Positions 871 to 19,116 of a stretch of 64,000 nucleotides of DNA are shown piece after piece. The DNA is from Candidatus Wolfebacteria bacterium (GTDB lineage Bacteria; Patescibacteriota; Minisyncoccia; UBA6257; UBA9933). Position 1 is the stretch's first letter. Each line of letters opens with the position of its first letter. Made by a program: the position numbers and the translations under genes. The notes below the pieces were generated by a model. It was not told where the DNA came from. It saw only the letters and a program-made list of their open reading frames with translations, and did not search any database. The stretch lies in NCBI GenBank assembly GCA_016214005.1, contig JACRPK010000006.1, positions 17,719 through 81,718 on the forward strand. The letters run 5' to 3'.

Positions 871-931
871 ATTTTCGCCATTAACTTTTTTATTTTCGTG
901 AGTATAATACAGTGTAGAAACCTTGAAAAAT
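871..931 (+). promoter_or_regulatory. promoter cassette copy A (TTAACT 881-886, 16 nt, TATAAT 903-908, then GTAGAAACCTTGAAAAATA)
   Basis: Member of an 8-copy repeat family with near-consensus sigma70 -35/-10 and a conserved downstream box. Confidence 0.6.
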
Positions 932-992
932 AAAAATCTAGTCAATTTTTATTTTGACTAATTAACAAAGACTGGAAAGGAGAAGGTGAAAT

Positions 993-1097
993 ATGATAGG
1001 TCCTGAGGACTGGGACGACACTGCCTCAAAAGAGCAGGGGAACGATGGCGAGGATAGCGCCGATTCCAGTAGCAATTCCGATGGCTCTGACAGATAG
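993..1097 (+). CDS. small acidic peptide, 34 aa (MIGPEDWDDTASKEQGNDGEDSADSSSNSDGSDR); candidate precursor peptide
   Basis: ATG 8 nt after GGAGAAGGTGA. Followed by rho-independent terminator. Shares a DW motif with the peptides at 4399 and 6193. Confidence 0.4.
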   Translation: MIGPEDWDDTASKEQGNDGEDSADSSSNSDGSDR

Positions 1098-1146
1098 AGC
1101 CCCGCGCCATAATCCGCTTTCTCAAAAGGAAAGCGGATTTATATTT
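1098..1146 (+). terminator. rho-independent terminator (aatccgctttc...gaaagcggatt + T-run)
   Basis: Perfect 11-bp stem with 6-nt loop followed by TTTATATTTTT. Confidence 0.6.
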
Positions 1147-1156
1147 TTGGAACTTA

Positions 1157-2434
1157 ATGATATTATTTTTAAATATGGCTTTTTATAATAAACAATTCCA
1201 ATCATTTCAATTGAAGAATGGTTTGAATATCATTACTCGCCAAGATAATAATTCGGATATAGCGACATTATCATTTCGAATTAAGGCAGGCTCGCGATAT
1301 GAAAAAGAAAATGAGCTTGGTTATGCCCATCTTTTAGAACATATGCTTTTGAAAGGAACAAAAAATTTTCCTTCTCCTTTTGAAATTGGATATGCCGTTG
1401 ACAGGGCGGGGGCTTATTTAAATGCTTCTACTGGGCAGGAGTTGTCCAGCGTTTATATCCAAGTTGCCAAAGAAAAATGGCAAGAAATGTTTAAATTGCT
1501 TTGTGATATAATTTCAAACCCGATTTTTCAAAAAGAAATTTTTGAAAACGAGAAAAAAGTTATTTTTCAGGAAATCAAAAAAACGAATGATAATCCTAAT
1601 AAATATCTGTGGATCAAAACAATTAAAAATATTTTTAAAAATCATCCGCTTTCTCATCATCCGCTTGGTGATGAAGAAATTATCAAAAAAGCGGTCGTTG
1701 AAAATTTAATAGATTATCGGGAAAGATTATTTATTCCAAATAATATGGTTTTGATTGCCAATGGCGCGATTGATAATGAAGAATTGATAAGAATAACCGA
1801 ACAAGAATTTTCTGTTCAAGATAATATTCAACAAAAAAGCGGCCAGTTCGATTATTCTGTTCCTCAAATAAATAAAGGGGAAGGTTTCGAATATTTTAAT
1901 AGCAGTCAATCTTATTTTAATTTTAATTTTGTTTCCGCCAGGGCTGATTTAAAAGATTATCTGGCGCTTCAATTAATCTCTATTTTTTTGGGTTCTCTTA
2001 AAACATCAATTTTATATCAAGAGTTAAGGCAAAAAATGGGGTTAGTTTATAATGTTAACGCTTATAATACCGGCTATCAGGATGCAAATTTATTTTATAT
2101 TGAAACTTCCAGCAATTATCCGGACAAAGTTATCCCCATAGTAATTGAAAAATTGTTAAATTTTGAAAAATATTTTTCAGAGAGCCTTCTAAAAGAATAT
2201 CAAGAACAATATGTAAATTCTTTAATCCGTAAATTAAGCGATCCATTCAATGAAATAAAGTTTTTGTCAGAATATTGGTTTCTCTATAATGGCATTAATC
2301 AGCTTTCGGATTTAATCAATATTATAAATTCAATAAAATATGAAGATTTATTTAGGATTAAAAATCAATATTTGAACGAAAATAATCTGTTTATTATGAA
2401 AATCGGCAAAGATAATCCGCAAATCCCCGCATAA
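1157..2434 (+). CDS. M16-family (insulinase/pitrilysin-like) zinc metallopeptidase, 425 aa
   Basis: HxxEH zinc motif (HLLEHMLLKGT) near the N-terminus. Length is typical of an M16 subunit. Its stop codon TAA (2432-2434) lies inside promoter cassette B. Confidence 0.7.
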   Translation: MILFLNMAFYNKQFQSFQLKNGLNIITRQDNNSDIATLSFRIKAGSRYEKENELGYAHLLEHMLLKGTKNFPSPFEIGYAVDRAGAYLNASTGQELSSVYIQVAKEKWQEMFKLLCDIISNPIFQKEIFENEKKVIFQEIKKTNDNPNKYLWIKTIKNIFKNHPLSHHPLGDEEIIKKAVVENLIDYRERLFIPNNMVLIANGAIDNEELIRITEQEFSVQDNIQQKSGQFDYSVPQINKGEGFEYFNSSQSYFNFNFVSARADLKDYLALQLISIFLGSLKTSILYQELRQKMGLVYNVNAYNTGYQDANLFYIETSSNYPDKVIPIVIEKLLNFEKYFSESLLKEYQEQYVNSLIRKLSDPFNEIKFLSEYWFLYNGINQLSDLINIINSIKYEDLFRIKNQYLNENNLFIMKIGKDNPQIPA

Positions 2435-2506
2435 AACCTCGCTAATTCCCCCCATTGACTTTTTTGTTTTCGTGAGTATAATACAGGGTAGAAACTTTGA
2501 AAATAA
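2423..2506 (+). promoter_or_regulatory. promoter cassette copy B (ATCCCCGCATAAAACCTCGCTAATTCCCCCC + TTGACT 2455-2460, 16 nt, TATAAT 2477-2482 + TAGAAACTTTGAAAATA)
   Basis: Repeat family member including the conserved 5' extension. Confidence 0.6.
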
Positions 2507-2612
2507 TCAGAGGAAAATCTCTGTTTTTATATATGGCGAAATATCTAAATAAAAACGTGGCTAATTTTTATTTGGTTTTGATTAACTTATAGCTGGGAAG
2601 GAGGATGCGAAT

Positions 2613-2714
2613 ATGGGCGGTAAAGGCGGTTCGGGCGGTCATGGCGGTGGCAATGCTGGTTCTGGCGGGCAAAACGGTCAGGGTGGCATTCGCGGCGGTG
2701 GCAGAGGCCGATAA
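2613..2714 (+). CDS. small Gly-rich peptide, 33 aa (MGGKGGSGGHGGGNAGSGGQNGQGGIRGGGRGR); candidate precursor peptide
   Basis: ATG 8 nt after GGAGG. Leader is conserved with copy A (GGAG..G.GAATATG). Followed by terminator hairpin ccccgatgtgaac...gtttacatcgggg. Confidence 0.35.
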   Translation: MGGKGGSGGHGGGNAGSGGQNGQGGIRGGGRGR

Positions 2715-2716
2715 TT

Positions 2717-2762
2717 CGACCCCGATGTGAACAAATCAATGTTTACATCGGGGATTTTTTTA
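2717..2762 (+). terminator. rho-independent terminator
   Basis: ccccgatgtgaacaaatcaatgtttacatcgggg followed by a T-run. Confidence 0.6.
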
Positions 2763-2779
2763 TTTATACTTTATAAAAT

Positions 2780-3424
2780 ATGATAAAAATTCCTTTTTAT
2801 GAAAATTCGAAAGACGATACTCATTGTTTTCAGGCTTGCTTGAAATCAATATTGAAATTTTATTTTCCTAAAAAAAATTATAGTTTTAAATATTTAGACA
2901 GAGCGACGGCTCACAAAAAAAATAAATGGACATGGAATAGCGCCGTATTTTTATTTTTAGAAAAATTTGGTTTTGAAATTATAAATATTGAAGATTTTGA
3001 TTATGCAAAATTCGCGCGGCTCGGAGAGCAATACCTTAAGAGAATATGGATAGATGAAGTATTTCAGACTCAAAAAAAATTTTCGGATTTAAAAAATGAA
3101 CAGAAATTGGCTAAAAAGTTAATTAAAAATAAAAAAATTAAATTATTAAAACGGCCGGCAACGATAAGTGATATTAAAAAATTATTTATAAAAAATTATA
3201 TTATTTTAGTGAACATTAATCCTTTTATTTTAAATAATAAAAAAGGTTATTCATCTCATATTGTGATTATAACCGATATGAATAAATCAAAAATAACTTT
3301 TCATGATTCCGGTTTGCCTCCGCAAAAAAATAGGAAAGCCCCCATTAAACTTTTCTTAAAAGCGATGGAATATCCTTATAAAGAAGACGCTAGTATTATT
3401 GCATTAAGATTGTTTTTTCTGTAA
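2780..3424 (+). CDS. putative papain-fold cysteine peptidase (C39-like), 214 aa
   Basis: N-terminal DDTHCFQACLKSILKFYF (Cys in a C39-like context). Later GYSSHIVIITDMN (His) and FHDSG (Asp). The order Cys...His...Asp fits C39-like leader peptidases. Confidence 0.4.
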   Translation: MIKIPFYENSKDDTHCFQACLKSILKFYFPKKNYSFKYLDRATAHKKNKWTWNSAVFLFLEKFGFEIINIEDFDYAKFARLGEQYLKRIWIDEVFQTQKKFSDLKNEQKLAKKLIKNKKIKLLKRPATISDIKKLFIKNYIILVNINPFILNNKKGYSSHIVIITDMNKSKITFHDSGLPPQKNRKAPIKLFLKAMEYPYKEDASIIALRLFFL

Positions 3425-3436
3425 GTTTGTGCTTTA

Positions 3437-3490
3437 TCTTTAAAATATTTTTTGAATTAAATATATTCAATTTGCCCGCCCTTTTTTAAT
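3437..3490 (+). repeat. ~50 bp repeat AAATATTTTTTGAATTAAATATATT..TTTGCCCGCCCTTTTTTAATGAT (second copy 17484..17535)
   Basis: Near-identical string at both loci. At the second locus it contains the stop codon of the kinase-like gene. Confidence 0.5.
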
Positions 3491-3513
3491 GATCAAATTT
3501 AATGATCAAAAAT

Positions 3514-3672
3514 TACAGCGTCAAGAAAATATGTTTTTCAGAATGTCTCGGAGGCGCAAAAAGCTTGGTCTTTTGCGAAGCAAAAGTTTTTGCGCCGAGA
3601 GCCAAGCTCTTGATTTTTCGCTGGAAAAAAATCAAAGAGCGGTTCTGAAAAACATATTTTCTTGACGCTGTA
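3514..3672. mobile_element. MITE-like structured repeat copy 1 (30-bp perfect terminal inverted repeats TACAGCGTCAAGAAAATATGTTTTTCAGAA)
   Basis: Three copies in the window (also 41576..41711 and 55953..56112), each with internal nested inverted repeats. ORFs called inside it are spurious. Confidence 0.6.
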
Positions 3673-3699
3673 ATCCCCAAAAAGTTATCCACAGCCTGT

Positions 3700-3785
3700 T
3701 CTCTCCCCATTGACTTTTTCATTTTCCCAAGTATAATGTAGGATAGAAACTTTGAAAAATACCAGTTCTAAGGTTAGAAACTGGT
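3700..3785 (+). promoter_or_regulatory. promoter cassette copy C (TTGACT 3710-3715, 17 nt, TATAAT 3733-3738) plus leader hairpin CCAGTTCTAAGGTTAGAAACTGG
   Basis: Repeat family member. The hairpin-type leader is shared with copies E and H. Confidence 0.6.
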
Positions 3786-3820
3786 TAAAAAAAGAAAGAA
3801 AAGAAAGAGGGGATAGGAAA

Positions 3821-4399
3821 ATGAAATTTTCAACGCGCCATATTATTTTACGACCAATGGAGGAGAAAGATTTATCGATTTTACATCAATGGCGTAACGA
3901 TGGCGATTTTATTCAATATTGTTCCGTTCGTCGTTATCCCGTCGAATACGAAGAATTTATTAATGAGTTGCAAAAGGATTTTAAAAATGATAGGCATCGT
4001 CAATTTATCATAGAATTACAAAAAGAGCGTAAGGTTATCGGTACAACTTATTCTTACAATTTTAACTCAATAGATGGTTATGCGTTTATAACTATTTATC
4101 TCGAGGAAAGGTACCGCTATCGTGGATATGGAGCAGAAGCAGTCGCGCTATTTTTAAGATTTCTTTTTGAATCATATCCCCTCTATAAAATTTATATGGA
4201 AGTGTATGACTATAATCAGCACGCGCTTTCAATTTTGCAAAATGCTAGTTTTGAAGAAGAGGGAAGATTTAAGGAACACCGTTTTTTTCGTGAAGAACGA
4301 TATGATTTAATCAGATTTGCATTTTTTCAGAAATCATTAACAAAAGTTTTTGAATTTTTAGAGAATATAAAATTTTATCGGAAAGGAGGTGATGTCTAA
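3821..4399 (+). CDS. GNAT-family N-acetyltransferase, 192 aa
   Basis: MKFSTRHIILRPMEEKDLSILHQWRND... with acetyl-CoA binding motif region YRGYGAEAV. RBS GGATAGGAAAATG. Confidence 0.7.
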   Translation: MKFSTRHIILRPMEEKDLSILHQWRNDGDFIQYCSVRRYPVEYEEFINELQKDFKNDRHRQFIIELQKERKVIGTTYSYNFNSIDGYAFITIYLEERYRYRGYGAEAVALFLRFLFESYPLYKIYMEVYDYNQHALSILQNASFEEEGRFKEHRFFREERYDLIRFAFFQKSLTKVFEFLENIKFYRKGGDV

Positions 4400-4599
4400 T
4401 GGGTTGGTTTAGAGATAAGGGAAAAGAAGGCATATTTCTTGAGGGGAAATCCAGTCGAGAGCATACCCATAGAGATGGTTCTCATGGGCGCGATGTAGAA
4501 GCATATCGCAACACATATAATGAGGGTGAACAAGTCCACAGCGAGAAAGCGGATGACTGGGGAAAGGATCACGAAAGTTCTGGCGATAGCGGAAAATAA
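4399..4599 (+). CDS. small hydrophilic peptide, 66 aa (…EKADDWGKDHESSGDSGK); candidate precursor peptide
   Basis: TAATG stop/start overlap with the GNAT gene. GGAGGTGA sits 9 nt upstream. Homologous to the N-terminal part of the 6193 protein (HTxRD…DWGxxKD). Confidence 0.4.
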   Translation: MGWFRDKGKEGIFLEGKSSREHTHRDGSHGRDVEAYRNTYNEGEQVHSEKADDWGKDHESSGDSGK

Positions 4600-4616
4600 A
4601 GTGGCACTTAACTAAA

Positions 4617-4662
4617 TAGGGCAGAGAGCAAATACTCTCCGCCCTATATTTTATTTTGAGGT
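4617..4662 (+). terminator. rho-independent terminator (tagggcagagag…ctctccgcccta + T-run)
   Basis: Inverted repeat followed by TATTTTATTTT. Confidence 0.55.
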
Positions 4663-4697
4663 TTCATTTTAAGTAAGTTTAAATTATAATTTTTAAT

Positions 4698-5975
4698 ATG
4701 CGCGATACAAAACAAATATTAAAAAAACCATTATTCTATCTTGTTAATTTACCTCAAAAAACGGATAAGATTTATTTCGATATTTTTTATCGCAGGGGAA
4801 ACATATTCGATCCTCCAATGGCAATGGGCATGGCGCATATGCTTGAACATTATATGGTTGGGCATCTGAAACAAAAATACATTCGCGATCATTTTATGGT
4901 TGGGGGAAGCATAAGTAATAGCTTCACAAATTTTTATCTTATTTCCAGCACACGTCAATTATTGTTAGATTTGCAGATTTTTTTAAGCGGAATTTTTAGA
5001 CCAGAATTTTCAGATAAAACAATTTTTGAATATGAGCTTAAAGCAGTTCGGAATGAAATTGCCGAAAAAAAACACGACATTGAATCGCAGATATTTGATG
5101 TTATTTCAAAAAAAATATTTTTAGGCGATTGTCCGTATCGCGCGGCAAATAATGAAAAAAATAAATATTTTGAAAAATTTACTCTTCATGACATACAGCA
5201 ATTTTACTTAAAAGATTTTTCAACCATAGAACCTTTGTTTGTTATAGGCGGTTATAATATAAACGATCGTTTGCTTAAAGAAGTTATTATTCTTATTCGC
5301 GAATTTTTACCGCAACGATTGCACTTATTTAATCATTTCAATTTTCCCAAATGCATTCCTCGCAGTTTTAACGTTGAAGCGATAAAAAACAAAAACATTA
5401 AAAGTGGGGCATATTCAGTGTTCACTTTTCCCGGTTTTTCAATGCAAGATCATGATTTTCGCTTGAGAATGGGGTTGCATGTGTTGTTAAAAATACTCAC
5501 AGGAAGTTCGCCATTCGGTTTGTCCATAGAAACCCGCAAATTAGGAATCTATAATATTTCTTATAAAAATATTATGAGACCGAGGATAGGGATTGTTTCA
5601 TTATTTTCTTTTACTGAAAATAATCAAATTTTCGCTTTGGCAAAACTAATTAAAGATCATATCGATTTGTTAAAAAAAGATCTTATAAACGAACAATATA
5701 TTTCAAAAATTGTTAACGACGCAAAAAATAAGCAAAAGGCGATTTGGGAAAATAACGAGAATAAATATAATTGGATCATAGATGATTTTAAATATTTAAA
5801 GTTTAATATTAACATCACGGCGGAAAAGAAAATATTGGATTCAATAACGCCTCAGTTTTTGCGGGAAATTGCAAATACAATTTTTAATTGGAGGAAATTC
5901 AATATGTTTGTTATATATAATGATATAAATAATCCACAGATAGGAAAAATAAAAAAAATTTTTCAAAATAATTAA
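4698..5975 (+). CDS. M16-family zinc metallopeptidase paralog, 425 aa
   Basis: HxxEH motif (MAHMLEHYMVGHL). Same length as 1157..2434. Confidence 0.65.
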   Translation: MRDTKQILKKPLFYLVNLPQKTDKIYFDIFYRRGNIFDPPMAMGMAHMLEHYMVGHLKQKYIRDHFMVGGSISNSFTNFYLISSTRQLLLDLQIFLSGIFRPEFSDKTIFEYELKAVRNEIAEKKHDIESQIFDVISKKIFLGDCPYRAANNEKNKYFEKFTLHDIQQFYLKDFSTIEPLFVIGGYNINDRLLKEVIILIREFLPQRLHLFNHFNFPKCIPRSFNVEAIKNKNIKSGAYSVFTFPGFSMQDHDFRLRMGLHVLLKILTGSSPFGLSIETRKLGIYNISYKNIMRPRIGIVSLFSFTENNQIFALAKLIKDHIDLLKKDLINEQYISKIVNDAKNKQKAIWENNENKYNWIIDDFKYLKFNINITAEKKILDSITPQFLREIANTIFNWRKFNMFVIYNDINNPQIGKIKKIFQNN

Positions 5976-5986
5976 CTTTGATCCGA

Positions 5987-6070
5987 ATCCCCGCATAAAA
6001 CCTCGCTAATTTCGCCATTGACTTTTTCATTTTCCCAAGTATAATATAGTGTAGAAACTTTGAAAAATAA
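5987..6070 (+). promoter_or_regulatory. promoter cassette copy D (TTGACT 6018-6023, 16 nt, TATAAT 6040-6045)
   Basis: Repeat family member. Followed by type-II leader ACGCATCCCTGCCTGCCGGCAGGCAGGTTTGTGAATGTGTTAATAAGAAAACCGG. Confidence 0.6.
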
Positions 6071-6077
6071 CGCATCC

Positions 6078-6097
6078 CTGCCTGCCGGCAGGCAGGT
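6078..6097. repeat. 20-bp perfect palindrome CCTGCCTGCCGGCAGGCAGG (copy 1 of 4)
   Basis: Identical palindrome at 11152..11171, 41542..41561 and 55922-ish (core CCTGCCGGCAGG). Confidence 0.6.
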
Positions 6098-6136
6098 TTG
6101 TGAATGTGTTAATAAGAAAACCGGACTTCATATTTT

Positions 6137-6154
6137 GCTATCACTAATGATAGC
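6137..6154. promoter_or_regulatory. 18-bp palindromic operator-like site GCTATCACTAATGATAGC (copy 1 of 5)
   Basis: Same palindrome (GCTATCAC yRr GTGATAGC) at 25155, 42593, 43143 and 43461. Confidence 0.45.
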
Positions 6155-6192
6155 GTGGTCAAAAATAAGTAAAGAAAGAGAGGAATTGAATT

Positions 6193-6576
6193 ATGGGTGG
6201 ATATTCTGAAAAAGATGCGGCAAAAGATACTAATTCTAGTATGAAAGAAACAAAAGATGCTTGGCATACTGCAAGAGATGATGCTGCTGAAGAAGGCGAT
6301 TGGGGTGTGCCAAAAGACAGACATGGTGAAGGATGTTTTATAGCGACTGCGGCTTATGGAAGCTATTTCGAGCCTCACGTAAAAATTCTCAGGGATTTTA
6401 GAGATATTTTTCTTGTGGAGAGTATTTTGGGAAGATTATTCATAAAAATTTATTATTGTATCAGTCCGTTTATTTCCGGTATTATTGAAAAAAGTGAAAT
6501 TTTAAAGAAAATTATGCGAATAATTCTTTCGCCGATAGCATTGTTGATTGAACATATATTTATAAAGCGCTTTTAA
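6193..6576 (+). CDS. 127-aa protein: N-terminal hydrophilic DW-motif peptide region fused to a C-terminal GCFIATAAYGS…LRDFRD…hydrophobic module
   Basis: N-terminal 47 aa are homologous to the 4399 peptide. C-terminus carries CFIATAAYGS followed by LRDFRD and a hydrophobic stretch. I recall this as a conserved C-terminal module of secreted/anchored proteins but cannot name the family with certainty. Confidence 0.5.
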   Translation: MGGYSEKDAAKDTNSSMKETKDAWHTARDDAAEEGDWGVPKDRHGEGCFIATAAYGSYFEPHVKILRDFRDIFLVESILGRLFIKIYYCISPFISGIIEKSEILKKIMRIILSPIALLIEHIFIKRF

Positions 6577-6610
6577 GCGCTTTTTATTTTGGCAAAATTA
6601 TTCATAATAT

Positions 6611-6895
6611 GTGATAATAATAAATATGGGAAAAGAAAATCAAAAAAATCCTGCCTGCGTTATTTTGTGGCAAGATGCGGCATATTCATATGAGAAAGAA
6701 TTTCCGAAAGAATTTCCATTGCCACAATTAACAGCTGGTTTTATTATTTCCGCTAATGATGAAGACGATTTTATAAATATTGCCATGAATGTTGAATATG
6801 ATGAAAAAACCGGTAAATTATATCCGCTCGATGGATTTTTAATACCAAAAAAATCGAAAATTGAATTCAGGAATATGGGATTTTTTAATGAATAA
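6611..6895 (+). CDS. hypothetical protein, 94 aa
   Basis: ORF with ATG start. No recognisable motif. Confidence 0.35.
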   Translation: MIIINMGKENQKNPACVILWQDAAYSYEKEFPKEFPLPQLTAGFIISANDEDDFINIAMNVEYDEKTGKLYPLDGFLIPKKSKIEFRNMGFFNE

Positions 6896-6900
6896 AATTT

Positions 6901-7161
6901 ATGGATAAAAAGAGAATTAAAGTTTATTGGGCAGACGCTGTATTTTATAAAAAGAGTAAAAATATTGGCGATGGTCTGACTAAAATGATAACTATTGGGG
7001 AATTATTCATTGAAAATGAAAAATTTATTGTGATAAAATATCCAAAATCAATTAAAGAAAATAAGCCATTATTATTTCAATTATTTAAGAGATTCTTATC
7101 AAAAAAACCCACTTACTTATTTATTCCCCGCGGAATGATAAGAAACATTATTTTATATTAA
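6901..7161 (+). CDS. hypothetical protein, 86 aa
   Basis: ORF with ATG start. No recognisable motif. Confidence 0.35.
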   Translation: MDKKRIKVYWADAVFYKKSKNIGDGLTKMITIGELFIENEKFIVIKYPKSIKENKPLLFQLFKRFLSKKPTYLFIPRGMIRNIILY

Positions 7162-7164
7162 TAT

Positions 7165-7275
7165 ATCCCCGCATAAAACCTCGCTAATTCCCCCCCCATT
7201 AACTTTTTTGTTTTCGTGAGTATAATACAGTGTAGAAACCTTGAAAAACACCAGTTCTAAGGTTAGAAACTGGTT
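7165..7275 (+). promoter_or_regulatory. promoter cassette copy E (TTAACT 7199-7204, 16 nt, TATAAT 7221-7226) plus hairpin leader
   Basis: Repeat family member. Confidence 0.6.
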
Positions 7276-7310
7276 AAAAAAAGAGAGAAAAGAAAGAGAG
7301 GATAAGGAAA

Positions 7311-8444
7311 ATGGTTGAATCGGCTATTGTTACATCACCGCTTAAAACAATGGTTCCAATCATTAAGGTGGTGGGCGATTTTTGCAATTTAAATTGCAAA
7401 TATTGTTTTTATAATGCCAAGGACCAGATTATCCGCCATGTGATGAGCAATGATTTGCTTGAAAAATTTTTTAGCGAGTATCTAGATCTTTTTTCTGGCA
7501 ATCTTTTTATTATTTGGCATGGAGGAGAGCCTCTTCTCGCAGGACTTCGATATTTCGAACATATTGTTGAACTTGAAAAGAAATATCTCAAAAAAGGCCA
7601 AACGATTAAAAACGCCATTTAAACAAATGCTACATTGGTAAACGATGAGTGGGCGCAATTTTTTAAAGCGCATAATTTTAAAGTTGGCGTAAGTTTAGAC
7701 GGCGGACAAGAAAGTCATAATCTATTTCGCAAAAATCATGGAGGGAAAGGTTCTTTTGATCATGCTATGCGAGGAATTAAAATACTCCGTCGTTATGGAA
7801 TAGAGCCTGGGATTATTCAAACTTTGACTCGCGCCAATATTTCGCGTGTTCAAGAAGATTTCAATTTTTTTGTGAATGTTCTTGGAATCCATGCGTGGGG
7901 AACAAATTTTTATCTTGATCTTGATAATATTAATCAGCTCATGCTGGATCAGAATCTTACCAATTGTCAGCTTGCGGATTTTTTGAGAAAACAAATTGAT
8001 CTTTGGCTTGTTCGAAATGATAGAACTTTACGCATTAGAGAAATAGAAAATTTTATTTCTGGCGTGTTTAATAAAAAAACGCCAAGTTGCGCTTTTAGCG
8101 GATCTTGCAGTAAATATTTTTGTCTTGAATACGATGGCAAAATATATCCATGTGATAGATCTTCTGGCAAGTCAGATCTGTTATTGGGAGATTTCTCCAG
8201 ACAATCGTTGCAAGATGTTTTTAATAGCGTGAGCAAATTAAATTATGATAAGCAGATTAATAATTTGCCATCTGAATGTTCAATTTGTGAATGGCTGAAG
8301 TTTTGCAATAATGGATGCGTTATGAACAGGGAAGGCGGGATTGGCGGTAAATATTATTATTGCGAGATGCGAAAAGAGATTTTTGCTTATCTTAAAGAGA
8401 AAGTTGGCGAATATAATCGATCACTTATAACACAAACCGCCTGA
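7311..8444 (+). CDS. radical SAM / SPASM-domain peptide-modifying enzyme (anSME-like), interrupted by an in-frame TAA at 7620-7622
   Basis: CxxxCxxC (GDFCNLNCKYCFY) at residues 25-32, followed by GGEPLL. C-terminal Cys cluster CSKYFCLEYDGKIYPCD…CSICEWLKFCNNGCV matches SPASM. Both halves are in the same frame. The TAA falls where the conserved Q of the (I/V)QTNGTLL motif is expected (here AI*TNATLVNDEW). Confidence 0.75.
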
Positions 8445-8465
8445 AAAGGCAGAAAGGAGATAGCA

Positions 8466-8633
8466 ATGGATGGTAATATTGCAATAGAGGGAGCTTTCTT
8501 AAGAGCGGAAGAACGGTCAAATAACGATCTGTTAATTGAGACAGATTCAAAACGGCAGGAAGCTGTTTTGGATTTTTGCAAATGGCCAGATTGGAACAAT
8601 GCTCCGGATTTCACAGAGCTGGAGACGCTCTAA
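8466..8633 (+). CDS. small peptide, 55 aa (MDGNIAIEGAFLRAEERSNNDLLIETDSKRQEAVLDFCKWPDWNNAPDFTELETL); candidate rSAM substrate
   Basis: Starts 22 nt after the rSAM stop, with RBS AAAGGAGA. Contains a CKWPDW segment (Lys-Trp adjacent). Followed by a terminator. Confidence 0.4.
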   Translation: MDGNIAIEGAFLRAEERSNNDLLIETDSKRQEAVLDFCKWPDWNNAPDFTELETL

Positions 8634-8639
8634 TATATA

Positions 8640-8692
8640 AATATTCCGACAAAGGCTTATCAAAATTTTTGATAAGCCTTTTTTATTTTAAT
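8640..8692. terminator. bidirectional rho-independent terminator (ggcttatcaaaatttttgataagcc)
   Basis: Perfect inverted repeat flanked by T-runs on both strands, between convergent genes. Confidence 0.55.
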
Positions 8693-9585
8693 ATTCCTTT
8701 TAATTCAGAAATTGAAAAATATACTTTTTCTATATATTCGTTATCAAGCGGTTTATTTTTCTTAATGTAAATATTTATTAATTTTATTAATTCTTCGGTT
8801 TTAACATAGTTTTTTGGTATTTTGGCGTTTAACGTAATATTCTTGCTATTTAAAAATTTTCTGCCCAAGACGCCATTGGGGAAAAGAGAACTTATCGCCG
8901 ATTCTTTAATAAGATTTATGGTATCAAAATCATTCAGATATTTTTTATACAGCAAGGGAAGAAAATATTGTTTTTCAAAACATAGATGTATTGTTTCGTG
9001 CCAAATAATACCCATGGCATGATTTGCGTCATTTAACGGATAGCGAGAAATTTCAAGGCTGATACTTTTATTATCAATACTTGCTCCGCCGCCCGTTTGA
9101 ACGGGTGAAGAAAATAATAAATTAATGTTAATTTTAAATTCAGAAGGAGAAGTATTAAAAATAATGTTCAATATATCAACTATAGATTTTACCAAATGCG
9201 GTTCATTTATTTTGTCGCTTAATTTTTTTTGCCATTGAAGTAGGAGAGGCTCTTCTTTGTTCCAAAGCAAATTAAATTTTTTTTCCAACAAAGAAAAAAT
9301 ATTTTTGAGATTAATAAAATCTTCTTGCGATAATTTTTGTTCTAAAATAATCCAAGGATTTTTTTCGATAAAAAATTGGCGCCCTAAGTATGATTCTCCA
9401 AATGGATATCGTAAGTGGATTTCTTTAAATTCTTTCAGGGAGTTTTCTTCTTCTGGCGAAAATTGCCCGAGTTCTTCTCTCCATAAAATATTGTAATTTT
9501 TTCGGTTGCTAAAATGCCATTCGGAAAGGTTTTGGATAAAAAAATAAAAATTTGCCCATTTTGAAATTATAAATTCAAATTTCAT
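8683..9585 (-). CDS. hypothetical protein with HExxH motif (putative zinc-dependent peptidase-like), 300 aa
   Basis: MGIIWHETIHLCFE contains HETIH. No other recognisable domain. Confidence 0.4.
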   Translation of the reverse strand: MKFEFIISKWANFYFFIQNLSEWHFSNRKNYNILWREELGQFSPEEENSLKEFKEIHLRYPFGESYLGRQFFIEKNPWIILEQKLSQEDFINLKNIFSLLEKKFNLLWNKEEPLLLQWQKKLSDKINEPHLVKSIVDILNIIFNTSPSEFKININLLFSSPVQTGGGASIDNKSISLEISRYPLNDANHAMGIIWHETIHLCFEKQYFLPLLYKKYLNDFDTINLIKESAISSLFPNGVLGRKFLNSKNITLNAKIPKNYVKTEELIKLINIYIKKNKPLDNEYIEKVYFSISELKGILK

Positions 9586-9672
9586 ATTATTTATTTTACT
9601 AAATTTTCTTTATTTTAACCACTCCTTTTCTCATAATTTGTTTCCTACTATTATTTTTTCCCAAATCCTTTC

Positions 9673-9760
9673 GAATCCCCCGCATAAAACCTCGCTAATT
9701 CCCCCCATTAACTTTTTTATTTTCGTGAGTATAATCTAGGTAGAAACTTTGAAAAATAAC
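9673..9760 (+). promoter_or_regulatory. promoter cassette copy F (TTAACT 9708-9713, 16 nt, TATAAT 9730-9735)
   Basis: Repeat family member. The leader is a diverged type-II version. Confidence 0.6.
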
Positions 9761-9864
9761 GCATTCGCGAGGAGTGTGGCAACAACGGATAATTTTATTT
9801 ATTATAGACTATAGATGGAGCAGAATGGTTCTGTTCCGCCAAACACCTTAAAAAGGAGACGACC

Positions 9865-10443
9865 ATGATCCAGACAGTCGAAAGGAGTTCTTGTTCGAGA
9901 GGGTTTGAGCACTTCCATGGCGGAGTTGGAGTTCAGGGGATTCTCAGCGATCTGGTAATTCCCGCAATTCCAGGCGAGTACTACGCCTACTCCTCCGAGT
10001 TCACGAAGGAACGACCGCTGTACGCGCTCATGAAGTGCAAGGCGAACAAGGATCGTCCAATTACCGCCGCGGAAGACCTTGGTCAAGAGGCAAACCTGCT
10101 TTTCCTGTTTGGCAACCAGAACCAGGTTCAGGCCTGCGCGATCAGGACGGCGTACATTTCCGGTCTGCTCGGTGACTCCGTCAATGGTGAGTCATTCGGC
10201 GAGACGTGGATTGCTCCCGCCCGGATTACCGCCGAAGACTTCTACGAGCTTCGTTCGAGGAAAGATGTGACGAAGCTAGTGGAAATTTGCCAGGTGGCGT
10301 GCTCGGAGCGCAGGGCATCCATCGCGCTGGAACCAGGGGTGGTCATTGCTATGATGACTGACTGCGGAAAGTACGGTTTGTTCTTCGTGAGGCGGATCAC
10401 TCCAGCACTGATCCAAATTGATGCTTGCCACATCTTGCTTTAG
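9865..10443 (+). CDS. hypothetical protein, 192 aa, in a compositionally foreign high-GC segment
   Basis: The segment ~9800-10560 is ~55% GC against ~30% in the flanks. It has RBS AAGGAGA and a downstream terminator hairpin ccgccaaggggtatcccttggcgg. Confidence 0.5.
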   Translation: MIQTVERSSCSRGFEHFHGGVGVQGILSDLVIPAIPGEYYAYSSEFTKERPLYALMKCKANKDRPITAAEDLGQEANLLFLFGNQNQVQACAIRTAYISGLLGDSVNGESFGETWIAPARITAEDFYELRSRKDVTKLVEICQVACSERRASIALEPGVVIAMMTDCGKYGLFFVRRITPALIQIDACHILL

Positions 10444-10573
10444 CTCCACACGGCACGCGAGTAGCATCTGCCGCCAAGGGATACCCCTTGGCGGCAGATT
10501 TAATTTTAAAACCAGGTATAAAATAGGCACATCAGGGGATTTATGAATAGCATTAGAACCCACCCCCTTGTAT

Positions 10574-11044
10574 CTATAAAATTTTTCGCCACACTTGCCC
10601 GATATCATCATCCGGTGGTGTTATCTCTCCAGCTCTCTCAAAACCCAATTTGCCATGAAAGCGCCACGACTCACTGTGAGAATTAGGACTATATAAAAGG
10701 ATTTCAGTAAAACCAAGTCTGCGCGCTTCCTCAATTAGTTTTAATTTTAGTGTTTTTCCGATACCTCTTCTTTTATATTTTACCGCAATGACATAAAATT
10801 CAACAGGATTATTAGTTAGCGCATACGGCTTTAAGTAGTTAGCCAATTTTTTAAAACCAACAATTCCTAAAATTTCACTGTTTTCCGTTGCTACAAAAAA
10901 ACCGGAATCTTTCTTCGGAGTTTTTTTAACATATAATTGTAATTCACTTAAAAGCTCCTTAAGAAATTCTGGGTCTGTCCAATACAAAGCAAAAATTTCT
11001 TCCACCGCTTTTTGGTCGCTTTCCTGAAATTCTCGGATGATCAT
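10574..11044 (-). CDS. GNAT-family N-acetyltransferase, 156 aa
   Basis: RRGIGKTL acetyl-CoA binding motif and characteristic GNAT fold order. Confidence 0.7.
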   Translation of the reverse strand: MIIREFQESDQKAVEEIFALYWTDPEFLKELLSELQLYVKKTPKKDSGFFVATENSEILGIVGFKKLANYLKPYALTNNPVEFYVIAVKYKRRGIGKTLKLKLIEEARRLGFTEILLYSPNSHSESWRFHGKLGFERAGEITPPDDDIGQVWRKIL

Positions 11045-11087
11045 TTATATATACTAGCAAAATTTTGTGGGTTAGGAAACAAGCGCT

Positions 11088-11171
11088 GTCCATTGACTTT
11101 TTCATTTTCCCGAGTATAATATAGGGTAGAAACTTTGAAAAATAACGCATCCCTGCCTGCCGGCAGGCAGG
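11088..11171 (+). promoter_or_regulatory. promoter cassette copy G (TTGACT 11093-11098, 16 nt, TATAAT 11115-11120) with type-II leader containing the 20-bp palindrome
   Basis: Repeat family member. Confidence 0.6.
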
Positions 11172-11272
11172 TTTGTGAATGTGTTAATAAGAAAACCGGT
11201 ACTACTATTGATAGTAGTGCCAAAGATATTTCAGACAAAGAAAGAAAAGAAAAAGAAAGAGAGGATGGGAAA

Positions 11273-12253
11273 ATGAAAGAAGCAATTCTTATTTTAACTA
11301 ATTCCGAAGATGGTAAACATACGGATGTTGTGCTTGAGAAACTTCAACAGGCTGATCAGAATGTTTTTCGTTTTGATTCAGATCGTTTTGCAAATGGTGA
11401 GATTATAATTGATTTTGAGAATAACCATCGGAGATGCGAATTTGCGATGTATTCTCATGATCAAGTGATAAATTCAAGAAATATTAAAAGTGTTTGGTAT
11501 CGTAGGCCTAATCATTTTAACTTGCAAATTCAAGATCTCGTTCAGCGTAATTATGCCGAACAAGAGATTAAAAATTTGCTAGATGGATTATGGACGATGG
11601 TGCCGGATATTTTTTGGTTAAGCAATCCGAAAAGCCTTGAACAAGCGCGGAAAAAACTTTTTCAATTAAAACTTGCTCGCGAGCTTGGATTCTTAATACC
11701 AGAAACAATAGTTACCAATGACCCAAATCGTGTTCATGAATTTTTTAAGACCTACAATGGTAAGATAGTTTTTAAAGCTTTTTATCATGAATTTCTAAAT
11801 TATGGAGATCGCGCATTTAATATTCCGACTACGCTTATAACAGAAAAACACCTAGAAAAACTTGAGCTTGTCAAGAAAATGCCATGTCTATTTCAAGAAT
11901 TTATCGATAAAAAATACGAGCTAAGAATAACGGTTGTAGGACAAAAAATTTTTCCAGTCAAAATTTATTCTCAAGAAAATTCTCAAACAACTGTTGATTG
12001 GAGAAATCCGGAGTTTATTAATAAACTCCGTTATGAAGTTGTTAGTATCCCAGAAGCGCTTGTTAAAACCTGTTTAACTATGTTGAATGAGCTTGAGCTT
12101 TCGTTTGGAGCTTTTGATTTTGTAGTTGATAAAATAGGGGAAATCTTTTTTCTTGAAATTAACCCTAATGGACAATGGTATTGGATGGAAAGTCAAACAA
12201 ATGTGCCAATTTCTGATGCCATTGTTGATATTCTAAGTTTAGAAAGGAGGTGA
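11273..12253 (+). CDS. ATP-grasp ligase (RimK/MdnC-like; candidate peptide macrocyclase), 326 aa
   Basis: N-terminal MKEAILILTNSEDGKHTDVV and central/C-terminal ATP-grasp regions (ELRITVVGQKIF…FDFVVDKIGEIFFLEINPNGQW). The called ORF begins inside the leader, so the start is set at 11273. Confidence 0.6.
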   Translation: MKEAILILTNSEDGKHTDVVLEKLQQADQNVFRFDSDRFANGEIIIDFENNHRRCEFAMYSHDQVINSRNIKSVWYRRPNHFNLQIQDLVQRNYAEQEIKNLLDGLWTMVPDIFWLSNPKSLEQARKKLFQLKLARELGFLIPETIVTNDPNRVHEFFKTYNGKIVFKAFYHEFLNYGDRAFNIPTTLITEKHLEKLELVKKMPCLFQEFIDKKYELRITVVGQKIFPVKIYSQENSQTTVDWRNPEFINKLRYEVVSIPEALVKTCLTMLNELELSFGAFDFVVDKIGEIFFLEINPNGQWYWMESQTNVPISDAIVDILSLERR

Positions 12254-12259
12254 TAGATT

Positions 12260-12370
12260 ATGAGTCCTGAGATTTTTGCGGCAATTTGCGCCGTGGAATC
12301 ATCAGAACAACTCTCTGAAGTTACGGCGAGTTGGACTGGCCAGGGGTCTTTCAAACATCAAGACGACTAG
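12260..12370 (+). CDS. small peptide, 36 aa (MSPEIFAAICAVESSEQLSEVTASWTGQGSFKHQDD); candidate ATP-grasp substrate
   Basis: AAAGGAGGTGA overlaps the ATP-grasp stop and the ATG is 7 nt downstream. Ser/Thr and C-terminal Asp residues present. Terminator follows. Confidence 0.4.
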   Translation: MSPEIFAAICAVESSEQLSEVTASWTGQGSFKHQDD

Positions 12371-12392
12371 GCAGATTAGTCGGGGACCCAAA

Positions 12393-12432
12393 ATAGGGAG
12401 TGGCGATAAGCTGCTCCCTATATTTATTTTTA
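12393..12432 (+). terminator. rho-independent terminator (atagggagtggcgataagctgctccctat + T-run)
   Basis: Inverted repeat followed by ATTTATTTTT. Confidence 0.5.
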
Positions 12433-12457
12433 ATATAATATTCATTAAAATATAAAT

Positions 12458-13165
12458 ATGTTAAATATACATCTTGAAAATTCAAAACAAACTAAATTTA
12501 TTTTAATAGGAGAAATTCATGGCATAAAGGAAAATATTGAGATATTAAAATCAATAATACAATCATATTTAAAAAGTAAAAATAATAATAAATTAATTTT
12601 AGCATTGGAATGGCCATATCAATTAACAGATGAAATTAATAAATATATAGATAATAATCTGACACAATTAAAATGGCAGAAATGGGATTTTATTAAAAAT
12701 AATGATGGAAGAATATCTAAAGAACATATACTTTTTTTAAAGTGGCTTAAAAATATTAATCGCAATCTCTTAAAAAATAAAAAAATTAAAATTCAATGTT
12801 TTGATGTAATTGAAAAAAAATGGAATAAAAGGGATAAAAAAATGGCGAATATATTACTCAAGTTGAAAAAGAGAAAAAATATTCAATTAGTTGCGATTAT
12901 GGGGAATTTTCATGCTTCAAAAATGGTATTTTATTTTGGTGGCAACAAATATATTCCTCTTGGATCATATTTTCCTCTTGATACAACAATATCTATTAAA
13001 TTAGAATATTGTTCTGGTTATTTTTATAATGAATATTCTAAAAAAATTCCTTCTCACAAAAATATAAATACAATTAAAAAATCTAAATTGCAAAAGAATA
13101 AAAAATCTGAATATGATTATATTTTTTTAATAAAAAAAGCTCATTCAACAAAGCCGTTATATTAA
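12458..13165 (+). CDS. hypothetical protein, extremely AT-rich; possible Tiki/TraB/ChaN-like GxxH…E…GxxH metalloprotein
   Basis: IGEIHG … ALEWP … MGNFHA in that order resembles the Tiki/TraB/ChaN motif layout. Local GC is about 20%. Confidence 0.3.
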   Translation: MLNIHLENSKQTKFILIGEIHGIKENIEILKSIIQSYLKSKNNNKLILALEWPYQLTDEINKYIDNNLTQLKWQKWDFIKNNDGRISKEHILFLKWLKNINRNLLKNKKIKIQCFDVIEKKWNKRDKKMANILLKLKKRKNIQLVAIMGNFHASKMVFYFGGNKYIPLGSYFPLDTTISIKLEYCSGYFYNEYSKKIPSHKNINTIKKSKLQKNKKSEYDYIFLIKKAHSTKPLY

Positions 13166-13179
13166 TAAATTTAAAGTTA

Positions 13180-13716
13180 ATGAATAAAAATTTAGTAAAA
13201 ATTATAAATGAAATGGCCGCCATTGATCAAAAGATGAGAAGAAATGCGATGAAAACTGGAATTTGGGATAAGATGGTTGATAGAAAAAATATATTAAAAA
13301 TAAAAAAAATTATTAAAAAATTTGGTTGGCCGACGATTGGTCTTGTTGGTAAAAAAGCTAGTTGGAATGCGTGGTTAATTATTCAACACGCCGATCATGA
13401 TATTCGGTTTCAAAAAACTATTTTAAGTCTGCTCGAAAAAATTTATAATAAAAATTCATTAGAAATAGATAAAAATAATATAGCGTTTTTAAAAGATAGA
13501 ATTTTAATAAATGAAGGGAAGCATCAAGTATTTGGGACACAATTTTATACAAATAAAAAAGGAATTTTTGGACCGAGGTCGATAAAAGATATTAAAAATC
13601 TTGATAAAAAAAGAAAAGAATATAATCTGCCGCCATTTAGTGAATATAAAAAATTAATAAATAATTACAAAGTTGTTCCGATTAAAAAAAATAATAAAAA
13701 TAATCACCGCCATTGA
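13180..13716 (+). CDS. hypothetical protein, 178 aa, very AT-rich
   Basis: ORF only. Its 3' end abuts promoter cassette H. Confidence 0.35.
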   Translation: MNKNLVKIINEMAAIDQKMRRNAMKTGIWDKMVDRKNILKIKKIIKKFGWPTIGLVGKKASWNAWLIIQHADHDIRFQKTILSLLEKIYNKNSLEIDKNNIAFLKDRILINEGKHQVFGTQFYTNKKGIFGPRSIKDIKNLDKKRKEYNLPPFSEYKKLINNYKVVPIKKNNKNNHRH

Positions 13717-13788
13717 CTTTTTTATTTTCCCGAGTATAATATAAAATAGAAACTTTGAAAAATACCAGTTCTAAGGTTAGAAACTGGT
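13705..13788 (+). promoter_or_regulatory. promoter cassette copy H (TTGACT 13713-13718, 16 nt, TATAAT 13735-13740) plus hairpin leader
   Basis: Repeat family member. Confidence 0.6.
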
Positions 13789-13824
13789 AAAAAAAAGAAA
13801 GAAAAAGAAAGAGAGGATAAGGAA

Positions 13825-15134
13825 ATGAAAAAGGAAATGCAGTTGAAATTGCCTTGGTTCCCGATCTTAGATATCTTGCTGGTTATTTTGTTGGGTGTGG
13901 TTTTGTTTGGTTGCGGAAGCAAAAAGGACAACAACAATAACAACAACAATAACAACGTTGTTGTCCAAAAGCCCACAGTCATTTTAACCGCCTCCGAGAC
14001 AAGCATCTGGAGAGGAAAGAAAATAACTCTTAGCTGGGAAGCTAAGAACGCCAATAGCTGCAAAGCTGTGATGTTAATCCCACCGATACCACCACCTACA
14101 GCATCACTTGCTATGGGGAGGATGGCAATTCAGCAGACGATGCCAAAAGCATCAGTGTTGATCTCTGGAAACTGCCGACTAAGTGGCATGGGGGGAATAT
14201 TAATGTTCGCGTCGCTAGCTCTGCCAAAACCAGCGATGGTATTTGGTTCGGCGAATGGTATGCTCCCAATGTCGTCAAATTCAACCTTGCCGGCAAAGTT
14301 CAATGTTCCATAGCCAAAGGTTATTATGTAGAAACTATCGCTTCCTATAGCGACAAGATCTACGCTCTTTGGCATGATGGTGACAGCGCTAGCAGTCCAG
14401 GCCACATTTCCATTTTTGACAACAACTGCAAAGAGTTGCAAGTCATTGAACCGCCGACGGGATATGTCTTTGGCAGGCTTCTGGGTGGGGGAACAATGGT
14501 TGTTGATCAAAACGGCATTGTTGTCCTTGCTTCCAATAACCCCTCAGAAGAGCTGTTTCACCTTGATTTAAATGGAAATTTCATTGGACAGCCCTTTTCG
14601 ATTACAGGCAGTACAGCTGTAATGACATTTGGTGTGACTGTTAGCAATGGAATTTCTTATACAATCGGGTTGGATACCGTAAATGGCCTCACTACAGCAG
14701 TTATTGTCAGCCATACCCTTGACAGCGCTGGCAATAATTGGGTGAATAATTCTTGGCGCTCTACTGCTTTAACAGGAGAAGCGTATACCCAAGATCTTTT
14801 CTATGCTGTCGCAGTCGGCCAAGACGGAATATACGTAGGCGGAGCAGTGACTGTTACTTATCCCAATGGCAGCGGGGATTGGACTTATCTTCTCGTCAAA
14901 TACGATTTCTTGGGAAATCGGCTTTGGCTCGTAGAAGACCGAAAGAAGAAAACGATCAACGGCCTTGCTGTTGACAGCAATGGCTATCTTTACACCAATG
15001 TTGGTGAAAAGATAAACCCTGCCGATGGTTCCGTTGTCTGGAGCATTGGAAAAACCTGCGGAGAGTCTGTTATCGTAGACAATGGAATTTTCTATGCCCG
15101 CCCTTTTTTATTTTTTGCGGAATTTGACAAATGA
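13825..15134 (+). CDS. lipoprotein with Ig-like domain and beta-propeller-like repeats; reading frame broken near 14060 (frame switches by 1 nt)
   Basis: Lipobox LFGC|GS and an Asn run. Frame A up to ~14060 (…ITLSWEAKNANSC) continues in frame C as DVNPTDTTTYSITCYGEDG…, a typical Ig-like strand pattern, through to 15134. The ORF track splits this into 13825..14313 and 14436..15134. Confidence 0.55.
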
Positions 15135-15199
15135 ATTTAACTTGTTATGCTAAAATCAGCATTTAGCTCTTTTAAAATAAAATAAGGAGAATATCGGCA

Positions 15200-16399
15200 A
15201 TGTCGACAATTATATGGCGAAATGTTGGAGAATATACTCATTTTTTAAATTGTGTGAATGGGCACATTGTTTCTTTCAAAGTAGATAGCGCGGAAGCAAA
15301 GAAAATTATAAATAACCCCAATCATTATGAATTTGATTGCGAAGCGGAAAAAGTTTTTAGGACAACAGGCAATCAATATAATTCTAGATTATGCCGCGGA
15401 AATTTGATTAAACTTGGTTTAGAATTTAAATTTCCGACAATAGTGAATATTGAATTAAGCAGGAGATGCTCATTAAGATGCATCCATTGTTATATTGGAA
15501 ATAAAAATTTAAGTTCATCTGAATTAAGTGTTTTTGAAAAAATGGATGATTGCAATATAGACGGATTCTTAAAAAAACTTAAAGATTTGGGAGTTTTTCT
15601 TGTCGTAATAACTGGAGGAGAGCCGTTTATTAGCAAAAAACTTCAAAATTTTTTGCGGATAGCAACAGAAAAAGGATTTTTGATAGAAATATTCAGTAAT
15701 TTACAAAATTTACCCGATTGGTTTTTGCGTAATAAATATGAGGATTTTAGAATAGGTAGAATACAGACTTCAATTTATTCATCTATATTTAAAATTCACG
15801 ATGAAATAACAAAAAGTGCTGGTTCTTTAAAACGCAATCTTAAAAATCTTAATTTATTAATAAAAAATGGGTATTTTGTTGAAGTAGCTACGCCTTTAAT
15901 GAGAAAAAATATCATTTCATGGGAGAGAACTAAATTTTTCTTTGAAGAAAAGAAAATCTCTCAAAATTTTTCTTGGCCGATAGCCGATGAATATTATGGG
16001 ACAAAAAAGAAAAGCAGTTTAAATATTTTTGGTCAAAGTTTTAGTCATTTTATAGAAAAAAATTTAGATTTTCTTTTAGAAAAAAAGTGTTTTGAATCCG
16101 ACGAATATATCTGCGAAGCGGAGAAAGCTATATTCGCGGTATCTGCGACAGGCGACGTTTTCCCATGTAGTCAGATGCCATTACCAGTTGGAAATATATG
16201 CAATAAAAAAATTAAAGATATTATATATGGGAAAGATATGTCTAAAATTGGCTCATTAAAATGGAAAGATGTTTTAAAAGAAAAAGTTTTTAATTTTTGT
16301 CCTGGCATCAATTATACTGATGCAGGAGATGTTTTAATCAAACCAAAACATATGTTCGGCGCGATAGCAACTCTTAATAATAAAATGGAAAGGAGGTGA
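15200..16399 (+). CDS. radical SAM / SPASM-like enzyme with ~85-aa N-terminal extension (candidate RiPP recognition element), 399 aa
   Basis: CxxxCxxC (RRCSLRCIHCYIG) at residues ~89-96, GGEPF, and C-terminal Cys residues (CEAEKAIFAVSATGDVFPCSQMP). The extension before the core is typical of RiPP maturases. Confidence 0.7.
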   Translation: MSTIIWRNVGEYTHFLNCVNGHIVSFKVDSAEAKKIINNPNHYEFDCEAEKVFRTTGNQYNSRLCRGNLIKLGLEFKFPTIVNIELSRRCSLRCIHCYIGNKNLSSSELSVFEKMDDCNIDGFLKKLKDLGVFLVVITGGEPFISKKLQNFLRIATEKGFLIEIFSNLQNLPDWFLRNKYEDFRIGRIQTSIYSSIFKIHDEITKSAGSLKRNLKNLNLLIKNGYFVEVATPLMRKNIISWERTKFFFEEKKISQNFSWPIADEYYGTKKKSSLNIFGQSFSHFIEKNLDFLLEKKCFESDEYICEAEKAIFAVSATGDVFPCSQMPLPVGNICNKKIKDIIYGKDMSKIGSLKWKDVLKEKVFNFCPGINYTDAGDVLIKPKHMFGAIATLNNKMERR

Positions 16400-18849: not shown

Positions 18850-19110
18850 ATGGAAAAATTAAACACAAACACATCTTTTTATTCAATAATTATTGAAGCC
18901 TGCGAAGAGGGCGGATATTTTGCTTATTGTCCTATATTGCAAGGCTGTCATGCCGAAGGAGAGACTTATGGAGAAACAATAGATAATATTCGCGATGTTA
19001 TTAAGACTCATCTTGAATTGCGAAAAAAACATAAAGAATTGACTTCTTTTATTAAAGTTAAAAACAGATCAGATATAAATATTCAAATTCCTGTTCCAGT
19101 GGGAAATTAA
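18850..19110 (+). CDS. hicB: HicB-family antitoxin, 86 aa
   Basis: YSIIIEACEEGGYFAYCPILQGCHAEGETYGETIDNIRDVI is characteristic of HicB/UPF0150. Confidence 0.7.
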   Translation: MEKLNTNTSFYSIIIEACEEGGYFAYCPILQGCHAEGETYGETIDNIRDVIKTHLELRKKHKELTSFIKVKNRSDINIQIPVPVGN

Positions 19111-19116
19111 TTTTTT

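Follow-up and report, generated by a model that had tools for sequence, protein, structure and literature searches.

The locus examined here raises the question of why a radical SAM/SPASM gene in a Candidatus Wolfebacteria genome carries an in-frame TAA at a position where a conserved glutamine is expected. The initial annotation had left three explanations open, namely a recent inactivating mutation, a sequencing error, and readthrough or recoding of the stop codon. In the analysis of the 64,000-nucleotide stretch of DNA containing the gene (the window), the first of these was retained, with intact orthologues and no further lesion in the gene, while the evidence went against error and recoding.

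One gene with a stop codon in place of an invariant glutamine

A single reading frame extends on the forward strand from the ATG at 7311 to the TGA at 8442-8444, and its sole interruption is the TAA at 7620-7622. This premature stop is codon 104, preceded by 103 sense codons, and the joined product of 7311-8444 is a radical SAM/SPASM protein of 377 amino acids (AA), referred to here as the maturase. The features of the gene and its immediate surroundings are:

7169..7250, forward strand: repeat cassette E, a promoter of a direct-repeat family (-35 box TTAACT and -10 box TATAAT at 7199-7226; promoter scan 10/12)
7250..7310, forward strand: 5' leader of the maturase gene, with the hairpin ACCAGTT-N11-AACTGGT (7250-7274) and, ahead of the ATG, a purine-rich region for ribosome binding
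7311..7619, forward strand: maturase codons 1-103, with CX3CX2C (C25, C29, C32), GGEP at 71-74, barrel strands 1-2 and most of strand 3
7613..7636, forward strand: 5' arm of a coding-region mRNA stem, codons 102-109, containing the stop (from folding and orthologue comparison)
7620..7622, forward strand: premature TAA in place of the invariant Gln104, also found in two further assemblies (loci L001 and L002)
7623..8444, forward strand: maturase codons 105-377 and TGA, with the remaining SAM-binding barrel and the SPASM domain
7680..7704, forward strand: 3' arm of the mRNA stem, codons 124-132 (K-VGVSLDG-G; from folding and orthologue comparison)
8466..8633, forward strand: precursor-like peptide of 55 AA with its own strong ribosome-binding site (AAGGAG); a homologue lies 3' of the radical SAM gene in most orthologous loci
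8651..8681, forward strand: hairpin resembling an intrinsic terminator (14 bp and a T run) between the convergent genes
8683..9585, reverse strand: convergent protein of 300 AA with an invariant HExxH (WHETIH), the third gene of the module, without a Pfam family

The Pfam Radical_SAM match (PF04055; residues 21-166, 77 bits against a cut-off of 29.5) spans the stop, a SPASM match (PF13186; 26 bits against a cut-off of 21.5) covers residues 267-326, and the joined protein aligns over residues 17-361 (E 1.9e-46) with anSMEcpe, an anaerobic sulfatase maturase of solved structure. As the domain and anSMEcpe matches cross the stop, the open reading frames 7311..7622 and 7635..8444 are one gene, as the initial annotation had proposed from their common frame, and a chance juxtaposition is rejected. 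The protein has the C25-X3-C29-X2-C32 and G71-G72-E73 motifs of the radical SAM superfamily, which are invariant across the orthologues, and the SPASM pattern C266-X9-G276-X4-C281, C323-X2-C326-X5-C332-X3-C336 and C351. Every SPASM cysteine, from C266 to C351, is encoded 3' of the stop.

In the public record, this one broken gene is listed as two ordinary coding sequences (CDSs) with no pseudogene label. MBI4993551.1 is the N-terminal piece of 103 AA (7311-7622), described as a 4Fe-4S cluster-binding domain-containing protein. MBI4993552.1, a radical SAM protein assigned to Candidatus Wolfebacteria, matches exactly the piece of 269 AA from TTG 7635 to 8444. This TTG is merely the first start-like codon past the stop. 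No second copy of the maturase gene was found within the 64-kb window, where the only other radical SAM/SPASM gene (15200-16399) encodes a protein about 22 % identical to the maturase.

Comparison with orthologues confirmed that the TAA falls on a conserved glutamine. The column of codon 104 is Q in all 43 aligned orthologous proteins (50-66 % identity), and the codon is CAA or CAG in 49 of 49 orthologous DNA loci, none of which has a stop at this position. The residue is also Q in 80/80 distant homologues (26-38 % identity) among the matches listed from a contig search with full alignment and generic motifs, a set that served later as a negative control, and it is aligned with Q98 of anSMEcpe. 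The motif proposed earlier, (I/V)QTNGTLL, was right in its conserved Q; in this radical SAM family it reads IQTNATL. Since the nearest relatives (L131, L111, L091 and L092) use CAA, one C>T transition is enough to produce the TAA, in agreement with the origin suggested at the outset.

Across the 49 DNA loci, no internal stop was found outside the variable C-terminal tail. In-frame stops within the aligned region occur only in L097 and L112, both in this tail. In L097, the stop (around 2400-2426) falls eight codons short of the normal C-terminus and is followed in frame by the conserved tail SLATQTA. It represents a natural, harmless nonsense mutation within this radical SAM family. Homologues of 333-348 AA that start at the conserved Met45 were suspected of upstream stops or recoding. 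This was rejected in favor of mis-called starts, as the upstream translation is intact in L007 and L008, the two loci translated for this check.

Artefact, recoding and the mRNA stem

The NCBI genome has this TAA, and so do two assemblies built separately from the runs SRR12113407 and SRR12113397, which are independent read sets, probably from one project and perhaps not from independent populations. The locus from SRR12113407 (L001) is identical to 7255-9707 of the window (2,453 bases), and the locus from SRR12113397 (L002) reads ...gccatttaaacaaatgc... at the stop. A literature search found no paper mentioning either run. Among about 15 billion predicted proteins there was no CAA version of the protein, and in 5.8 billion protein clusters the next best match after the window's own fragment was 66 % identical. 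A single-base difference in a metagenome-assembled genome could be a sequencing or assembly artefact, with CAA as the true codon and an intact gene. However, the identical base in three assemblies, two of them made separately from different runs, together with the lack of a near-identical intact protein, makes an assembly error unlikely, and we regard this explanation as very improbable.

A change of the genetic code, with TAA reassigned to Gln, would also restore the protein. Stop codons have been reassigned in some related uncultured lineages, such as UGA to Gly in Gracilibacteria and Absconditabacteria. Against this precedent stands the survey of terminators in the window, where 61 non-overlapping long ORFs end on TAA (46), TGA (9) or TAG (6), with no sign of reassignment. 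The genes for S12, S7 and EF-G stop on TAA at normal C-termini, with Pfam matches extending to the profile ends, and the neighboring precursor peptide and HExxH genes likewise stop on TAA. The tRNA scan, which covered the window, yielded Gln-CUG as the sole tRNA. TAA being the main terminator, the terminator usage of the window excludes a reassignment, whose probability we consider negligible.

Leaky or programmed readthrough would require UAA104 to be read as Gln often enough to yield a useful amount of full-length maturase, possibly under the influence of the mRNA stem. tRNA-Gln is near-cognate to UAA, and insertion of Gln would restore the native residue; UAA is recognized by both release factors. 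The maturase gene shows no other decay, and its promoter is intact, as are the precursor and HExxH genes. The stop lies inside a 19-bp stem conserved in the family, in which U7620 is paired with A7697; with T instead of C at 7620, the stem gains 3.8 kcal/mol in stability in the present TTA background. Nevertheless, UAA is the standard terminator here, and the stop at 7620-7623 has the most frequent context, TAA-A (25 of the 61 long ORFs). The stop is absent from codon 104 in all 49 orthologous DNA loci, hence nothing is conserved or programmed, and the stem is no readthrough signal, since orthologues with a Gln codon have it as well. Moreover, the 5' arm must be melted by the ribosome ahead of the stop, and no stimulatory structure was found after it, as 7623-7720 folded alone is no more stable than shuffled sequences (z -0.72). 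The in-frame stop at a position of the maturase where a sense codon is required resembles programmed readthrough or reassignment, but stop conservation, depletion of TAA and a special context are all lacking here. Readthrough at a useful level is therefore considered improbable. A -1 frameshift was likewise rejected, because the TTTAAAC heptamer at 7618-7624 does not lie in the phase needed for slippage and the downstream part is already in frame.

The stem itself deserves separate consideration. The region 7600-7720 folds into a long stem (z -3.2) that was also found in three of four orthologues tested (z -4.5, -3.6 and -4.4) and pairs the strand-3 codons (AIQTNATL) with the strand-4 codons (K/R-VGVSLDG-G). 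Its two arms have corresponding positions in the loci L003-L010 and L091-L131. In 33 distinct orthologous sequences, 16.3 of 19 pairs are observed (z = 11 against within-gene shuffles of synonymous codons) and about 13.5 of 19 are expected from the amino-acid sequences alone; the sequences are related to one another, and while 9 of the 33 went into deriving the structure, 24 did not. A standard pair occurs in 85.1 % of the cells, compared to 32-43 % with the partners slid, and 34 cells are changed on both sides, compared to 16 ± 5 in the shuffles. At the same positions in the 80 distant homologues among the matches listed, the stem is absent (9.8/19 pairs, z = 1.5). A search of Rfam returned nothing relevant for the stem or the leader. 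Judged from these sequence comparisons, the stem appears to be maintained by the choice of synonymous sites and some double changes. If real, it would be an unusual example of an RNA structure that links the codons of two neighboring beta-strands and is kept through synonymous sites.

The window has all 19 pairs, with U7620-A7697 (in the TTA codon of Leu129) in place of the C-G of the nearest relatives. A reading of this as a compensatory change, and thus as evidence of selection, was set aside as weak, because TTA accounts for about 32 % of the Leu codons here, each of the two changes is a GC>AT transition, in a genome of 36 % GC, and the pair is mismatched in 12 of the 33 orthologues. For the same reasons of TTA usage and mismatched orthologues, the U7620-A7697 pairing is regarded as a coincidence favored by GC>AT mutation pressure. 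There is a very small chance that selection on the stem helped to fix the T allele, or that the context allows a low, useful level of Gln insertion as a leaky throttle of the pathway.

The three-gene module and its surroundings

The maturase gene belongs to a module of three genes, comprising the radical SAM/SPASM maturase, an acidic, Trp-rich precursor and the convergent HExxH protein. It is conserved in many Patescibacteria (window 7311-9585; loci L003-L010 and L091-L131), while the genes upstream of it are not conserved between the loci. In the orthologous loci, the convergent HExxH proteins have 293-330 AA and the precursors 45-80 AA. In 29 of 36 loci examined, a homologue of the peptide is encoded no more than about 70 nt 3' of the radical SAM gene, and three of the seven loci without it had less than 100 nt of sequence past that gene. 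A literature search found no paper on this module in Patescibacteria.

The window peptide of 55 AA combines a conserved leader, AIEGAFxRAEER..NDL, with a Trp/Asp/Asn-rich core, KWPDWNNAPDF. Across the family, the leader is shared (..AIxGAxxR....N[DN]L..) and the core varies, taking two forms, GWDDQWxNWDDLGGDDPGWGD[IV] or [GD]WxNWPDW[DE]NxxDFPNWE[DN]I. Such a short gene next to the maturase gene, whose product keeps its leader while the core changes, fits the dedicated precursor of a RiPP maturase. The module looks like an uncharacterised modified-peptide pathway. The placement of the maturase gene in the initial annotation, behind cassette E and ahead of a candidate substrate peptide, agrees with the location of both features.

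Among proteins of solved structure, anSMEcpe (PDB 4K36-4K39; TIGR03942) is the best match of the maturase by sequence as well as by fold (TM 0.85-0.86 for a model of an orthologue). Both have the CX3CX2C, GGE and QTN motifs and the SPASM cysteine pattern, at an identity of about 29-30 %. However, the maturase scores 260.7 bits with the TIGR03942 equivalog model, which has a cut-off of 349.45. No sulfatase gene was found in the window neighborhood or in the orthologous loci; instead, a small Trp-rich peptide gene adjoins the maturase gene in most of these loci. The next best NCBIfam matches are DynA (215 bits), DarW (167) and GrrM/OscB (147), all far below the family cut-offs. These belong to the radical SAM/SPASM RiPP maturases of the Trp-cross-linking or cyclophane type (DynA, DarW/DarE, GrrM/OscB, AmcB, YhhB, XyeB; ChlB), of which ChlB (PDB 9GM3) is the second-best fold match of the orthologue model. 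The locus resembles such systems in that a short precursor gene adjoins the enzyme gene and its core is rich in aromatic residues with W-x-x spacing. It differs from them in that the precursor is downstream of the enzyme, the partner is an uncharacterised HExxH protein and the enzyme gene is broken. The comparison suggests a peptide maturase that may cross-link aromatic residues.

The promoter of the maturase gene is one of eight near-identical cassettes, all on the forward strand and spread over 13 kb (878-13740), where eight pattern matches were found and none expected. Each cassette heads a different gene or small operon and contains a strong sigma-70-type promoter (TTGACT or TTAACT, 16-17 nt, TATAAT). 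Three cassettes share one leader, with the hairpin ACCAGTT..AACTGGT, and two share another. The ATG of the maturase gene is 85 nt past the -10 box of cassette E, and its leader is 85 % identical to the leader at 3699-3821 of the GNAT gene. CCCCGCATAAAACC stands before several of the cassettes and, combined with TTCGAATCC at 9672-9680, looks like a tRNA gene 3' end. Such tRNA-like 3' ends next to the cassettes are a hint of repeated integration or duplication events. The cassettes and the genes of the cassette-rich stretch 1157-16399, which is dense in peptide-processing genes, are:

878-908, 2452-2482, 3707-3737, 6015-6045, 7196-7226, 9705-9735, 11090-11120 and 13710-13740, all forward strand: promoter cassettes
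1157-2434: M16 peptidase
2780-3424: C39-like peptidase
3821-4399: GNAT acetyltransferase
4698-5975: second ORF of 425 AA, without a Pfam match
6193-6576: CFI-box-CTERM protein
11273-12253: MvdD-like ATP-grasp ligase
15200-16399: second, intact radical SAM/SPASM gene

Graspetide clusters have been described in these lineages (PMC8939145). Two small ORFs with strong ribosome-binding sites lie on the forward strand just 3' of cassettes, one for an acidic peptide of 34 AA (MIGPEDWDDT...) at 993-1097 behind cassette A, and one for a Gly-rich peptide of 33 AA (MGGKGGSGGHGGG...) at 2613-2714 behind cassette B. Both may encode further precursor peptides. Elsewhere on the forward strand, at 18850-20533, small ORFs of about 72-89 AA form several tandem pairs that appear by eye to be of the HicB/HicA type or otherwise toxin-antitoxin-like. 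The 16S rRNA gene at 35730-37327 (forward strand) has 1,598 bases compared to the 1,533 positions of the model, i.e. about 65 extra bases; rRNA insertions are common in these lineages.

Consequence and age of the lesion

The effect of the stop on the enzyme was considered with a structural model of an orthologue of 377 AA with the same numbering (pLDDT 93.3, pTM 0.90), which has strands at 15-19, 64-70, 98-105, 124-128, 167-172 and 195-200. Strand 98-105 is the third of the SAM-binding barrel and holds residue 104 at its end, so the stop cuts inside this strand. A fragment of 103 residues would retain CX3CX2C and GGE, with about 73 % of the protein missing, including the rest of the barrel and the whole SPASM domain with its auxiliary clusters, and would be expected to be non-catalytic.

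A possible way around this loss is a split enzyme, in which the piece of 103 AA and the piece of 269 AA re-initiated at TTG 7635 form an active two-chain enzyme. The two CDSs of the NCBI annotation imply such a reading, the TTG is only 12 nt past the stop, and a Shine-Dalgarno match is found for only 14 of 62 genes in the window, so its absence at the TTG says little. On the other hand, the usual start in the window is ATG, TTG 7635 lies inside a predicted local hairpin, and no split orthologue was found. The pieces would also be without residues 104-108 (QTNAT) at the end of strand 3, of which Q104 and T108 are invariant and T105 and N106 nearly so. A working two-chain enzyme is thus unlikely, and we would assign it a very low probability.

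We therefore favor, with high confidence, a real and recent CAA>TAA nonsense mutation and thus a young pseudogene. The stop lies in a conserved domain, is reproduced in separate assemblies and has no counterpart in the orthologues, which are intact. Like ordinary bacterial nonsense pseudogenes, the locus has a conserved gene that is intact except for one transition to a stop; it differs from these in being annotated as two CDSs and in that the mutated base completes a pair in a conserved mRNA stem. The proposed course of events is that a C>T transition converted the codon of the invariant Gln104 in this Candidatus Wolfebacteria population and that translation now presumably stops there. The pseudogene would be young because nothing else in the gene has decayed. 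No frameshift and no second stop was found in the maturase gene. Among 120 columns with a conservation of 90 % or more, the window protein deviates at seven, four before the stop and three after it, while the intact orthologues deviate at 5.0 ± 3.9 of these columns and 14 of the 43 at seven or more. Read from the sequence, this pattern suggests that the mutation is recent or that the gene is still constrained. The lack of decay, together with a strong intact promoter and intact partners, would also be compatible with continued use of the gene at a low level.

The partner peptide was also considered as a sign of decay. Within its subfamily, the window peptide alone has F for the first Trp and 'TELETL' for 'PNWE[DN]I'. 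Two Trp conserved in the subfamily are missing from its core, but decay of the peptide was not accepted, since the variation of the core across the family is large. The changes are suggestive at most and would be compatible with a relaxed constraint on the module.

Under the favored reading of a young pseudogene, the lesion leaves intact the promoter cassette, the precursor gene, which carries a ribosome-binding site of its own, and the convergent HExxH gene; any residual activity of the enzyme would require rare near-cognate decoding of UAA. Since the partners are intact and the enzyme is truncated, the module is probably without peptide modification, and the peptide may still be made. For the annotation, this means that MBI4993551.1 and MBI4993552.1 are to be corrected to one disrupted gene and that the genome is to be counted as one without the modifying enzyme. 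For genome mining, an intact orthologue is preferable to the window copy for studying the module, which has probably lost its modifying enzyme in this genome.
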